Assembly (NCBI GenBank): GCA_963751455.1
Contig: CAVVUN010000002.1
Span: 64,001 to 128,000 of the forward strand
Direction of reading: 5' to 3'
From: Nitrospirota bacterium
Lineage (GTDB): Bacteria; Nitrospirota; UBA9217
Length of the DNA stretch: 64,000 bases
The translations under genes were made by a program, and so were the position numbers. The notes beneath the pieces were generated by a model. That model saw only the letters and a list, made by a program, of their open reading frames with translations, was not told the origin of the DNA and did no database searches. Within the stretch, counting starts at the first letter, position 1; each line of letters starts with the position of its first letter. Positions 5,281 to 54,133 of the stretch are shown in pieces.

Positions 5281-5927
5281 ACGAGAGGTCAGTCTGGCAT
5301 TATCTTCCGCCGCCCGGTCCGCTCCTGAGTCTGCTGCTCATCGGCATGGTGCTCCTGAGCGGACTCCTTTATTACCGCGCGGTAAAGATCCAGCGGTTCC
5401 TCGAGCCGGCCCTTGCTCTCTCGCAGCCCCGGAACGAATTTACGAACAGCATCGGTAAGACCTTCGAAAAAGAGTTCGGCCCAAAAACACCCAGCGGCCT
5501 GAGGCTCAAATCAAGTTCGATCCTTGTGGAAAAATCGCTCCTGTATTCGGGAGGCCTCATACTGAACCTGTCGGCTCGGGACGAAATGCAGAAGCTTGCG
5601 CGTATTTTCCTGACGTTGATGAAAGACGAGAAAACGAGATCGGAAATCAGCCTCGTCCTGATCATCGCCCGTTTTCCTTCCTATGGCGGCGCAAGGGGCG
5701 GCCACAACATGGAGCGCATCGAAGCGCAGCGCATGATGGGGCTCATCCAGGACGCTCTCTTTCAAGAGCAGCCCGAACTCGGAGTGCGCTATCCTCATTA
5801 TTTTGCGGCTGTCGCTCAGGCCACGAGCCCGCACGAACCGAACAGGAACAGCGTCGAGTTCCGAATCGTTCCATCCGAATTTCTGCACATAGAGGTGCTT
5901 GAGAGGTTACAGAAGTACTCTTATTGA
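5277..5927 (+). CDS. Single-pass membrane protein, possibly degenerate MotB/OmpA-like
   Basis: ATGA overlap with upstream gene; one TM helix; C-terminal NRNSVEFRI resembles the OmpA/MotB NRRVEI motif. Confidence 0.55.
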   Translation: MNERSVWHYLPPPGPLLSLLLIGMVLLSGLLYYRAVKIQRFLEPALALSQPRNEFTNSIGKTFEKEFGPKTPSGLRLKSSSILVEKSLLYSGGLILNLSARDEMQKLARIFLTLMKDEKTRSEISLVLIIARFPSYGGARGGHNMERIEAQRMMGLIQDALFQEQPELGVRYPHYFAAVAQATSPHEPNRNSVEFRIVPSEFLHIEVLERLQKYSY

Positions 5928-6046
5928 CCCTTCGTTCCTTCTTTTTTTCTAATAATCCCACGACCCCGTTGTAAAAAATGAGTTCAATTCGTAATCTAAT
6001 ATCTTGTAATAATTATAAATATAAGGCAATTAAGCGGCGTTTTGTG

Positions 6047-6075
6047 TTGACAAAGAGCGCATCCGGAGATACATT
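6047..6075 (+). promoter_or_regulatory. Sigma70-type promoter of the rhodanese gene
   Basis: TTGACA (6047-6052), 17 nt spacer, TACATT (6070-6075) in an AT-rich intergenic region; palindrome ATACTTAAGTAT just downstream. Confidence 0.6.
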
Positions 6076-6196
6076 TATTGTGTTAGAATATACTTAAGTA
6101 TTAATATCTGCGTCGCGATGAGCTTCAAATAATAAACTAAGGGAAAGGGGGTATCGTAAGCGTCTGTGGATTCAAAATTAATCCAAGGAGGCAAAA

Positions 6197-7786
6197 ATGA
6201 ATTTTAGCAATCAGCAAAAGCAGTGGAAAAGCTTAGCATGGCGGTTCTTGACAGTTTCAATGCTTCTCATCCTCACCATCCTCTTTGTAAGCGGCTGTTC
6301 AGATAATGATGATAACGGCACGCCGGCCACTTCGCTAGTGTCAATCAGTATCACTCCTTTAAACCCGAGCATTGTCGGCGGAACAAAAAAGTTTACGGCA
6401 ACGGGTACTTATTCCGACAACACCACACAGGACCTGAGCGCAACTGCCACATGGAGTTCCTCGAATACGAGCGTTGCGACGATCAGCAAGGGATTTGCCA
6501 CAGTGATCTCCGCCGGAACAACAACCATTACTGCGACCAGTGGATCTATTTCGAACGCGACAAGTCTTACGGTTACTGCGGAGAGCTCTGGTCTGACTTC
6601 TTTGATTACGACCACCGCCCTGCATGACATGATAGTAAGCGGGGTCGTAAATACTACAGGAACGAACCGTGTAGTGATCCTTGACATCACGACTGCGACA
6701 ACATATTCTGCAGGCCATATCTCCGGCGCACTTTATTGTAGCGGCACCGGAAGCATTATGGAGACACGTAAGGAAGGGCCGGCTAAAGATATTAATATGG
6801 TTCCAACCGGCGCCACGGTGGATGCGTTCATTCAGAAATATGGAATAGACGGGAACACTACCATTGTCTTGACGAGCGGCGATACCACCGAGGTTCAAGC
6901 TAAAGCGGCATCAGCAATGCTCAATGTGACAAGGACGTACTTCACATTGAGATACTGGGGCTTCCCCAAGGAAAAGCTCAAGGTCGTTGATGGACTTAAT
7001 TTTGCTTACAAAGCGTATCATTCTGGATATTGGATAACAGGCCCGACGTCGCCCACAGTTACACCATCCACCTATAGCGTAAAAAATAACGCTTCGCTTC
7101 GGACAGATCTCAGATCTTCGTTCAGTGATATGATCGCGGCGGCAGAAGCGGGCACTGACGCAATTATTGACATGAGAAGCGCATCCACGGCCGGATCGTA
7201 CGCAGGCGTAAAGGGCTCAACGGCAGGAGCGTTTAGCCCGGGTTCAGACTATACCGTTTTCGAGGGCCGTGTAAAGGGCGCACAAGCCATGGATTACAAG
7301 ACCGAACTTCTCGATTCATCTCTGCACTATCGTTTCCTGGCTAGCAATACGCTTGCCACTAAGTTTGGTAATTTAGGCTCGTCTTCCACAAAGCGCACCC
7401 ATGTTTACTGAAGGACCGGAGTGATCGCCAGTTCGGCGTTCTTCGTTCTTGATGGTATATTGGGTTGGCCGGTTTCGGATTATGATGGATCGTGGAGCCA
7501 GTGGGGACAGATGTCGAATTCAAGTGGAAACGGCGGGAAACTCACTTCCAATACGTGGGCCACAGACATGTCGACCCGCAGTGAAAATATAATTTACACT
7601 TTTCCCACCTTTTCAGTGGAACTGCTTACAGTCGATGGCACGGCCTGTTCAGGCAGCCTGCTTCCTGACGGCAATTCAACATACACTCCAACAGGCTGTG
7701 AGACTTCATATCCGCCCGACTCAACTTCGGCTTCAGGAAACCAGATCGAAGAAGAGGATGCAGCCTACTGTAACACAAAGCTGTGA
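6197..7786 (+). CDS. Selenocysteine-containing rhodanese/sulfurtransferase lipoprotein with Ig-like (Big_2) domain, ExtH-like, 529 aa
   Basis: ORFs 6197-7411 and 7421-7786 are in one frame, separated by TGA 7409-7411 at the rhodanese catalytic position (HVY-U-RTG). YDGSWSQW signature follows; lipobox FVSGC; SECIS-like hairpin. Confidence 0.88.
7418..7444 (+). promoter_or_regulatory. Bacterial SECIS-like hairpin
   Basis: GGAG.GA.CGCC-[AGTTC]-GGCGTTCTTC; loop starts 18 nt after the TGA with G in position 2. Confidence 0.7.
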
Positions 7787-7806
7787 GATATTGTTCCAAG
7801 GATCGG

Positions 7807-7843
7807 AAAGGGCTTAGAGGAAAACCTCTAAGCCCTTTTTTTT
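7807..7843 (+). terminator. Rho-independent terminator
   Basis: AAAGGGCTTAGAGG-AAAA-CCTCTAAGCCCTTT followed by a T run. Confidence 0.93.
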
Positions 7844-8100
7844 GAGAGGCGTGCGCGTATATTTAAATAATATTCCCTTCCTTGTTGCGTCCTTTGCAGT
7901 ATATAAAGATACTCATCCTTTCTTCCCATTTACCTTTTATATTCGCAGTGCTACAGTTTTAATTATAAAAGGGGCAGAGAATTTCACAAGTTTTCAGATT
8001 CGGTAACAGTATGCCTTATTCGTGAGGAGAGAGAGCAAGCCTCAAGCTCAAGCTTTTTTGGAGCGGAGGTACCCACGGAGGAAAAGGAAGGAGGACAGAT

Positions 8101-8956
8101 ATGAGAAAAATTATCAGCAGCGTGGTCATGCTCACCTTTGCCGTAATGTTTATTTTCGGCGTCTGTCGCAGCATACGGACAGGAGACGTTATCAGGCGGA
8201 GGTTTCCGGCCTCTTCAGCATGATAGATGAACTATTGATACCACAGCCATAGGCGTTTCAGGGGAATATTTTTTCCAGCCCGTTAACACCCGAGACCATC
8301 CCTACAGAGAGGCGGCATTCCTGGAGCGTATCGGAAGCGGCATCCTGACCTTACAGAACATCGACATAGACACATGTAGGAGACGGGCCGCGGTTTGGCG
8401 TCGGCCTAAATTATGCAAAGCCCGGCTTTCCTTTTGTTTTCAGAGCCGATTATTCAGATCGGATATAGATCTTGATTCGGGAGGCAGCACGAAGGACAAC
8501 GACATTCGTCTCAGGGCCGGCAATTACTTTATGGACGGTCTTCTTGCCGGTGTAGAGTATAACAATGTGAAGACGGAAATAACCGGTTTATCGGATATAA
8601 CTGATACGGGTTACGGTGTCTTTGCAAAATATGTTGGAGACATGATGGGCAGAACCATCGGGTTGAATGGAAGCATTGGAACCGGCAAGCGCGATACCGG
8701 CAGCGCGACACTTGATAACATGAACGTTGCCGTGGCAGGCGACTACTTCTTTAACAGGGCGCTGAGCGCCGGACTCGGTCTTGCAGTCAGTACAGGGGAC
8801 GATAAAGCGAACGAAGGAACAACCTGGGCAGCGAGAGGCGATTACTTTTTTACACCACGCTATTCAGTCAGAGTAAGCTACTCCATGTTCAGCGCCGATA
8901 ATTCCGGTTTTGAAGATGAAAACGCGCTGGATGCGGTCTTGGCAGCACGGTTCTAA
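8101..8956 (+). pseudogene. Outer-membrane putative porin, several frameshifts (probably sequencing indels)
   Basis: RBS ggagg plus a signal peptide at 8101. Fragments in different frames read YQAEVSG, EYFFQPV..HPYREAAFLER and GDYFF; terminal ..AARF. Confidence 0.75.
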
Positions 8957-8980
8957 CCGGACTCTAGAGTACCGGAAATG

Positions 8981-9020
8981 AAAGCCGTTAGAGGTGCATC
9001 TCTAACGGCTTTTCTTTTTT
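8981..9020 (+). terminator. Rho-independent terminator
   Basis: AAAGCCGTTAGAG-GTGCAT-CTCTAACGGCTTT plus T-rich tail. Confidence 0.9.
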
Positions 9021-9318
9021 AAAACCGTTCTTCGGAAAATTGGGGTGTCTTCGCTCAACCTCGGATAGATTTGGAGAAATCATCGCGCAGCTCTTGGCAT
9101 TTAATAATTTTGCATTTTTCAATTTGCAATATGCATTTTGCAATAAGTTTTCCAAACAACCAGTTTGTCGCTCATATCCGCCCCACTTTTCTCCCCATTT
9201 TTTTGTTGCAATTATTTACAACATACTGTACAGTTGCCATGGTTTCTAATAAGGGCTCATCGAGCGAGATCGGCATCTTTGGATCCTGTCAGAATAAAAC
9301 ATATTCAGGAGGGATCGG

Positions 9319-9516
9319 ATGAACTGCTGGGAATTAAAAAAATGTTTGCAAGCTACATATGAAGCTTGCCCTGCGTATCCGGACCGCGGGCTGGACTGCT
9401 GGAAAGTTACCGGAACGAAATGCGAGAAGGGCACAATAGAAAAGGCTACGAGTCTTGAAAAAATCGCACACTGCCGCACCTGCGATTTTTACCAGCAGTA
9501 CGCGCACAAATTCTAA
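9319..9516 (+). CDS. Small Cys-rich two-CW-domain protein
   Basis: RBS ggagg; NCWE..C, CPAY, CWKVTGTKC and CRTCDFY pattern. Confidence 0.8.
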   Translation: MNCWELKKCLQATYEACPAYPDRGLDCWKVTGTKCEKGTIEKATSLEKIAHCRTCDFYQQYAHKF

Positions 9517-9956
9517 GAGCCCCATTAAAAAATATTCAACTGTTTTTGCGAATCCCGAGTTACTTCAGGATAAACTGCGCGAAGTAATCCAGTTTTCACA
9601 AAAATAGAAAATCAAAAACATGTTTCGCCTCTCGACGCATACCCCAAAAATTCTCCTCCAAATCTTCTCCGGACTTCTTGCTATTTAAAGAATCTTATAG
9701 TAGGCTCTGTTTGAACGGGGCCAATCACCCGGTAAAGATTAAACCTCTCTCATCTCCTCCCCGTGCATGTCCAGATTTGGTAATACCCGAAACTGGATAT
9801 TAGTGGTTTCCAAACAGCTATTCCATGAACTGCATATTAGTCAATTTGTAAAATTAAGAAATACATATACTTGCCTGATCTATAGGCTCGGTAGAAATAA
9901 ATTCGCATTACGTCGGGCCGTCCGTAGAATAACTTGTTAATATGTGGAGGCACTGA

Positions 9957-53776: not shown

Positions 53777-54133
53777 ATGTCGAAAACCGTTACTCTGTAT
53801 TTATCAACATCGCCGTATTCCTACGAGAACACCTTAACAAGTGCCCGCATTGCTGAATCGGCCTTGAACAAGGGCCATACCGTCAATCTCATTGCGTCGG
53901 CTGACGGTATCTATTGTTTCCTGACAAAACAGAAGGCGAAGGGCATACTGAATGCCGAGGAGGAATTTTCCCGGCTTATTCAAAAGGGGCTGAAGGTGTA
54001 CCTTTGAGGCGGGTGTCTCAACTTTCGCCGTGCGGCGAAAGACGATTACCTTGCAGGTTCTGAGGTCGGCTCCCTCAAGGGTTTGTTTGCAACCATGGGC
54101 GAGAGCGACGTCTGGATCAACGTCGGAGCATGA
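53777..54133 (+). CDS. dsrE: DsrE/TusD-family selenoprotein (U77-G-G-C80), 118 aa
   Basis: RBS aggagg; SPYS, ADGIY; VYL-U-GGCLNFR with TGA 54005-54007. Read-through gives the DsrE C-terminus GSLKGL..ESD.WINVG. Confidence 0.88.
54022..54041 (+). promoter_or_regulatory. Bacterial SECIS-like hairpin
   Basis: Perfect 8-bp stem CTTTCGCC-[GTGC]-GGCGAAAG; loop starts 22 nt after the TGA. Confidence 0.78.

Follow-up and report, generated by a model that had tools for sequence, protein, structure and literature searches.

The 64,000-nucleotide stretch of Nitrospirota DNA analysed here (the window) carries a stand-alone gene for a tandem rhodanese of the ExtH family, with a TGA at the catalytic codon. 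We consider it probable, with some reserve, that its product is a selenocysteine (Sec) lipoprotein that binds polysulfide or sulfane sulfur in the envelope and passes it to reductases such as MccSep/ExtKL, and that the Porin_7 gene lying downstream is unrelated to it. The features of the locus are listed in Table 1.

Table 1. Features of the extH locus (window coordinates)
Feature	Position	Strand	Details and basis
Sigma-70-like promoter match	6047..6075	+	10/12 bases; consensus match only
Shine-Dalgarno sequence	6185..6191	+	Upstream of ATG 6197; read from sequence
Sec-ExtH gene (predicted)	6197..7786	+	529 aa with UGA read-through
Lipoprotein signal peptide with lipobox	6197..6298	+	V-S-G-C34, Ser at +2
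Big_2 Ig-like domain	6341..6574	+	Residues 49-126; domain search, E 2e-8
Tandem rhodanese core	6596..7516	+	Boundaries approximate; domain search, fold match, AlphaFold model
In-frame TGA, catalytic position U405	7409..7411	+	Loop U-R-T-G-V-I; homolog alignments
SECIS-like conserved block	7421..7441	+	Apical hairpin 7426-7438; nucleotide conservation
ExtH-specific C-terminal extension	7517..7783	+	Carries Cys484/Cys501; without Gly-rich -GC/-GY tail
Intrinsic terminator-like hairpin and T-run	7807..7843	+	z -3.6; between extH and porin
Porin_7-family porin gene	8101..8956	+	4-5 frameshifts in 5' part as assembled; not ExtI
Terminator after porin	8980..9022	+	Folding and consensus scan

Under genetic code table 11, the open reading frame starting at the ATG stops at the first in-frame TGA, so that standard gene callers split one extH gene in two; when that codon is read through, the frame continues to the TGA at 7784-7786. 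The original prediction had proposed a comparison with an ExtH profile. With read-through, the product scored 242.8 bits against NF040901 (ExtH; cut-off 200), whereas a product ending at the TGA would score 165.2 bits, under the cut-off. The window protein belongs to the ExtH family and has its features, i.e., a lipobox signal, a tandem rhodanese fold and a catalytic residue in the C-terminal domain. The lipobox, the Big_2-like domain and the tandem rhodanese domains that had been read from the letters were all recovered, the first in the sequence itself and the others by domain search, which detected two rhodanese stretches.

The Cys34 column is nearly invariant in the homolog alignment, and Cys34 is the predicted site of lipidation. 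By analogy with the E. coli +2 rule for lipoprotein sorting, the basis of this prediction, the serine at +2 would direct the protein to the outer membrane. The Big_2 domain would serve as a spacer; its closest counterparts, among the Big_2 repeats encoded by other genes of this genome, reach about 65% identity. No other Big_2-ExtH occurred among the matches listed; several tail-less Cys-type relatives bear a Big_5 domain instead. Within the rhodanese core the N-terminal domain lacks the catalytic cysteine and the C-terminal domain is the catalytic one. An AlphaFold model of the protein had a mean pLDDT of 86, with most of the core above 90 and the Ig domain poor; in it the active site opens a six-residue loop that links a strand and a helix. 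The best fold match was a Thermus rhodanese (1uar, E 3e-15); neither ExtH nor ExtI had a close sequence match to any solved structure. Eight sigma-70-like consensus matches were found in the region, against 5.0 expected. A perfect 12-bp palindrome at 6090-6101, unique in the genome, lies directly downstream of the promoter-like match in Table 1 and is possibly an operator.

The active site, noted earlier as Y-U-RTG, reads HVY-U-RTGVI and falls on the catalytic cysteine column; 22 database homologs aligned with the window protein have an invariant cysteine where its gene has the TGA. Across 90 genome rows, one of which is a different rhodanese (in L060), the catalytic codon was TGC in 58, TGT in 16 and TGA in 16, and never TAA or TAG. 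The 16 TGA rows correspond to 13 distinct genes, the window gene and those of L006/L028 and L007/L043 each being counted twice; 17 loci had no residue in the catalytic column, most of them being Ig-only matches. From metagenomes 76 loci were taken, and TGA occupied the catalytic codon in 29 of the 75 that cover it. We searched with the core preceding the TGA and examined the 119 nearest of the database proteins listed: 98 ended exactly before the catalytic residue and 21 continued with cysteine; the catalytic residue is thus missing from annotation because public copies, about a hundred of them, are cut at the TGA. The reading frame is conserved on both sides of the codon. The original prediction had named homologs ending at the TGA, or two halves occurring as separate genes, as grounds for abandoning it; the homologs instead alternate between cysteine and TGA, and their sequences run on beyond this residue. 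On a tree of 80 cores, four changes between Sec and Cys are required. Where a Sec row carries a taxon label, the label is Nitrospirota, except for one 2.7-kb contig labelled Betaproteobacteria. It is hardly credible that translation truly ends at the TGA, or that the codon arose by sequencing error, in a pseudogene or split gene: the assembly does contain errors and the window copy sits on a long branch (0.52 in the core tree), but the same TGA and the bases downstream of it recur in many independent assemblies, the 529 codons contain no further stop or frameshift, and in the AlphaFold model the part after the TGA would complete the rhodanese fold, packing into the core with pLDDT mostly above 90. 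A selenoprotein encoded in the window, with the UGA decoded as Sec, is therefore a well-supported prediction.

The nucleotides that follow the TGA are conserved in a manner confined to the Sec forms. In nine Sec genes, 5 of the 8 degenerate codons within ten codons after the TGA were invariant, compared with 2 of 64 elsewhere, and mean identity was 0.83 just after the TGA against 0.43 elsewhere. There was no such peak in 14 Cys genes (0.35 on the three scorable columns versus 0.39 on 48). A 21-base block was identical in 26 of 29 metagenome Sec genes, differed by one base in two and was cut off in one. Within it is a hairpin with a 4-bp stem and an AGUUC loop; the loop G-U lies at positions 23-24 from the UGA, the place of SelB contact in the E. 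coli fdhF element. The SECIS-like stem of the original prediction has therefore gained Sec-specific conservation and not a notable stability: its folding energy is ordinary (z -1.27 and +0.28) and no compensatory pairs or covariation were seen across homologs, so that the case for a SECIS element rests on conservation. An Rfam search of 5900-9600 returned nothing above the gathering score.

The genome encodes selA, selB, selD and two tRNA-Sec (selC). The selD gene (G000:C2:129959-130997), 2 kb past the end of the window, is split by a frameshift as assembled, and so is dsrA (C2:327037-328180); 3 of 72 conserved genes checked also carry a frameshift. Taken together these point to assembly indels, and the selD frameshift is likely to be an assembly error. 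A BamA-like gene at 29.6-32.3 kb of the window also appears split.

As to function, we propose that the window ExtH would bind polysulfide or sulfane sulfur in the envelope, that U405 would form a seleno-persulfide, as in the persulfide of rhodaneses, and hand the sulfur on by double displacement, and that the acceptors may be periplasmic reductases such as the MccSep/ExtKL selenocytochromes of this genome. The sulfur-accepting enzyme, and the face of the outer membrane on which ExtH resides, are the least certain parts of this model; because the protein lacks the tail of ExtI-adjacent ExtHs (see below), a periplasm-facing and ExtI-independent enzyme is the default prediction. PMC13510729 (2026) shows that S0 respiration requires ExtKL/MccSep, which reduces polysulfide in the periplasm; its Discussion leaves open the route by which polysulfide reaches this enzyme, and ExtH would be an obvious candidate for that supply. 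The neighbours of extH are YeeE/YedE sulfur transporters in Nitrospirota loci and extI, extKL, extMN or a PhsA-like gene in loci of the Desulfuromonadales type. It is these neighbours, together with the polysulfide reductase activity of MccSep, that lead us to favour the carrier role.

Matches to Sec-type MccSep/ExtKL were present in 46 of 64 family genomes, and three such genes occur here, all on contigs other than that of the window, so that the earlier statement that an exported selenoprotein is unusual was too strong. ExtKL was found in 15 of the 18 family genomes with extH and in 31 of the 46 without it (p 0.24), a co-occurrence that is not significant because ExtKL is common anyway. The three genes lie at G000:C15:1355435-1356709, C7:6495-7718 and C1:52374-53594, the C1 and C7 copies having near-identical flanks.

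Rather unlikely, in our estimation, is the view that ExtH handles selenium and not sulfur. On this view, which follows a suggestion made for Geobacter ExtH/ExtI, the protein would capture selenite or selenide at the outer membrane, to be reduced, detoxified or supplied to SelD. Published work does connect ExtH, together with ExtI, to the handling of selenite and not of polysulfide: according to PMC8981825, deletion of extI impairs both selenite uptake and the localisation of ExtH. Rhodanese can form a stable perselenide in vitro (PMC11957799), and the present genome is rich in selenoproteins. However, the reported role depends on ExtI, whose gene is not adjacent here and itself precedes another lipoprotein gene; an enzyme that already requires selenium for its own synthesis would be an awkward choice for primary uptake; and MccSep, of the same operon, is essential for sulfur respiration (PMC13510729).

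The original prediction had joined extH and the downstream porin gene in a minimal ExtH/ExtI-like envelope module. The porin does belong to a different family, as had been noted, and it is not an intact gene as assembled. ExtI is a Porin_O_P/NF040900 protein; the window porin has a Porin_7 domain and no NF040900 match, and the ExtI of this genome is on contig C15, so that the identification of the porin as ExtI was rejected. Only the 3' part of the gene is open, and a frameshift-aware alignment to three paralogs placed the frameshifts between about 8146 and 8457. Elsewhere in the assembly indels are far less frequent than the 4-5 in about 310 bp found here, so that the gene is a pseudogene or this patch was poorly polished. 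The strong terminator seen earlier was found again as a hairpin and T-run, although the consensus scanner did not list it, and a separate promoter-like match (7842-7871) lies upstream of the porin. It is improbable that Porin_7 has replaced ExtI, with the frameshifts being assembly errors and both proteins cooperating at the outer membrane. The two genes are on the same strand, 315 bp apart, a porin follows ExtH in most relatives, and the indels in selD, dsrA and three of the conserved genes mean that the porin may be intact; against this stand the terminator and separate promoter-like match, the difference in family and the local excess of indels. The distribution of the porin also argues against it. 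No match was present in the other ExtH loci compared, and none of the three intact paralogs elsewhere in this genome is beside extH. This porin occurs in 4 of 64 family genomes, including this one; of the other three, one has the porin and extH on different contigs and two gave no match to extH. A conserved pairing of ExtH with Porin_7 was thus not found, either in other ExtH loci or in the 64 genomes. Given the family of the porin, the terminator, the frameshifts and the lack of pairing elsewhere, a new two-gene envelope module is not supported, and the porin is probably unrelated to ExtH. As the original prediction stated, no cytochrome genes flank the locus; extKL and multiheme cytochrome genes do not adjoin extH.

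It had also been suggested that ExtH could be the extracytoplasmic partner of the cluster at 52-62 kb (ArsR/DsrEFH/SQR); in that role it would supply SQR with sulfane sulfur or take it away. The two share a contig, about 45 kb apart, and a sulfur theme, and the cluster has an SQR-like flavoprotein gene and DsrE-family genes, one with an in-frame TGA. Yet sqr was present in 13 of the 18 family genomes with extH and in 31 of the 46 without (p 0.77), none of the recurrent neighbours listed at ExtH loci is sqr, and no further copy of the palindrome upstream of extH was found near the cluster; the partnership is therefore highly doubtful. The TGA-bearing DsrE-family gene (53777-54130), the first of three dsrE/F/H-like genes before sqr, has its TGA in a UxxC context, a known selenoprotein type.

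In most relatives extI adjoins extH downstream, and ExtI was present in 16 of 18 family genomes with extH versus 9 of 46 without, these being related genomes that do not count as independent. The C-terminus of most ExtHs is a Gly-rich linker followed by -GC, or by -PGY in most Sec forms; the window protein ends in YCNTKL and has no Gly-rich tail. Among 80 genome loci, 58 had the tail with ExtI next to it, 2 the tail without ExtI, 1 ExtI without the tail and 7 neither, 12 being undecidable; these counts include four duplicate pairs, and three of the seven loci with neither come from this genome. Among 75 metagenome loci, 53 had the tail with ExtI next, 3 the tail without ExtI, and 17 were undecidable, two rows (L141 and L164) scored as ExtI without the tail having been dropped as misparsed. 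At the single exception in the genome set (L068), a Big_2 lipoprotein ending in -PGY directly follows ExtI. We also took 15 stretches around ExtI genes that are not next to extH, 12 of which had a complete co-directional next gene. Nine of these 12 encoded a product ending in Gly-X (five GH, two GE, one GC and one GN), two ended in VH and one did not fit; the background in this genome was 6 of 103 lipoprotein-like open reading frames.

The association between tail and ExtI did not pass a phylogenetic test, because there were too few contrasts (two independent ones, both in the same direction, p 0.5). The rule is also blurred by three short-ended ExtHs (L029, L066 and L089) that end in Gly-X without an adjacent extI. 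ExtI modelled alone is predicted to fold as an OprP/OprO-like barrel, which has no bearing on binding of the tail. From these sequence patterns, the Gly-rich -GC/-GY tail is possibly a signal for docking to ExtI, which would account for the report that ExtH requires ExtI for its localisation; alternatively, its terminal cysteine could be a sulfur-carrying arm. A wider scheme can be put forward only tentatively, and we would not expect it to hold in full: that ExtI-type porins dock or export lipoproteins ending in Gly-X (-GC, -GY, -GH, -GN) on a flexible linker, with ExtH and Big_2 lipoproteins as clients; that the selenoenzyme of the window has lost this signal, is no longer encoded beside extI and has acquired an Ig stalk, becoming an ExtI-independent polysulfide carrier; and that the Sec-ExtH branch is a widespread, unannotated family supplying an outer-membrane sulfur route for MccSep-dependent S0 respiration. 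The extI gene of this genome (G000:C15:149174-150289) has no adjacent extH. Its locus (L212, to 152070) continues with two lipoprotein genes, the first for a small product ending in -GN and the second for a larger one that has a single CxxCH, and similar loci with ExtI and an Ig-lipoprotein occur in several family genomes (L196, L199-L201, L204-L206 and L208).

Compared with Geobacter sulfurreducens ExtH (GSU2940, assessed through the NF040901 profile and Desulfuromonadales homologs, not its own sequence), the window protein shares a family score above the cut-off, the lipoprotein signal, the tandem rhodanese domains and the C-terminal extension. It differs in having a predicted Sec at the catalytic site and a Big_2 insert, and in lacking the Gly-rich -GC tail; its gene does not precede extI (GSU2939, NF040900 in G. 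sulfurreducens) and is not part of an extJKLMN operon. Sulfurtransferases of the TST/SseA/CysA type are mostly cytoplasmic or mitochondrial Cys enzymes. Their structures (PDB 1uar, 3aay and 1rhd) have the same two-domain fold and six-residue active loop, but no lipid anchor, Ig domain or equivalent of the C-terminal extension of about 90 residues. The Sud protein of Wolinella succinogenes is a small, single-domain Cys rhodanese that serves the molybdenum enzyme Psr. The proposed principle, an exported rhodanese concentrating polysulfide for a reductase, would be the same, whereas no PhsA/PsrA was found above the cut-off in this genome.

Predicted Sec rhodaneses are listed as forms 1-5 in Table 1 of PMC13188914, two of them with UxxG, and form 4 is of the SseA/COG2897 type (PMC9312934). 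The window protein has in common with them the replacement of the catalytic cysteine by Sec, with forms 2 and 4 the UxxG motif and with form 4 an SseA-like tandem fold; none of the five is named ExtH or NF040901, a separation that follows their descriptions only. A term search of the accessible text of PMC13188914 (2026), together with its table, found neither ExtH nor NF040901 among the 119 families, and ExtH is not named in the accessible text of PMC9312934. In the corresponding parts of PMC5877670 and PMC6148476, ExtH is a rhodanese-like protein, with no mention of Sec. The full-text literature searched and the supplement of PMC13510729 contained no Sec ExtH, most subscription papers and selenoproteome discovery supplements lying outside that scope. 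ExtH would thus join the families with a Sec form.

Three forms can be compared within this genome: the Ig-bearing Sec ExtH of the window, another Sec ExtH and one of the Cys type. The second Sec form (G000:C6:106200-107460; L002) has the motif S-T-U-A-G-G, no tail and no extI; the hairpin after its TGA differs from that in the window gene and is stronger, and it falls in a separate Sec group with L078 and L089. The Cys-type gene (G000:C12:238579-241353) encodes an ExtH-like protein without the lipobox cysteine; it is followed by another exported rhodanese-like gene, and a sigma-54-type activator gene lies upstream. Four distant ExtH-like proteins (P0140, P0230, P0238 and P0247) have twin-arginine lipoprotein signals and an acidic composition that would be typical of haloarchaea, and some of their C-terminal ends are Gly-rich. 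Two others (P0130 and P0286) have a DUF7151-type (PF23657) N-terminal insert, a further type of stalk besides Big_2 and Big_5, and P0130 ends at the Sec position. Finally, a second perfect Shine-Dalgarno-like stretch is found tens of bases upstream of the real one before the extH genes of L002, L007, L026, L027, L032, L033, L042, L044 and L078, and the same extra stretch precedes two extKL copies.
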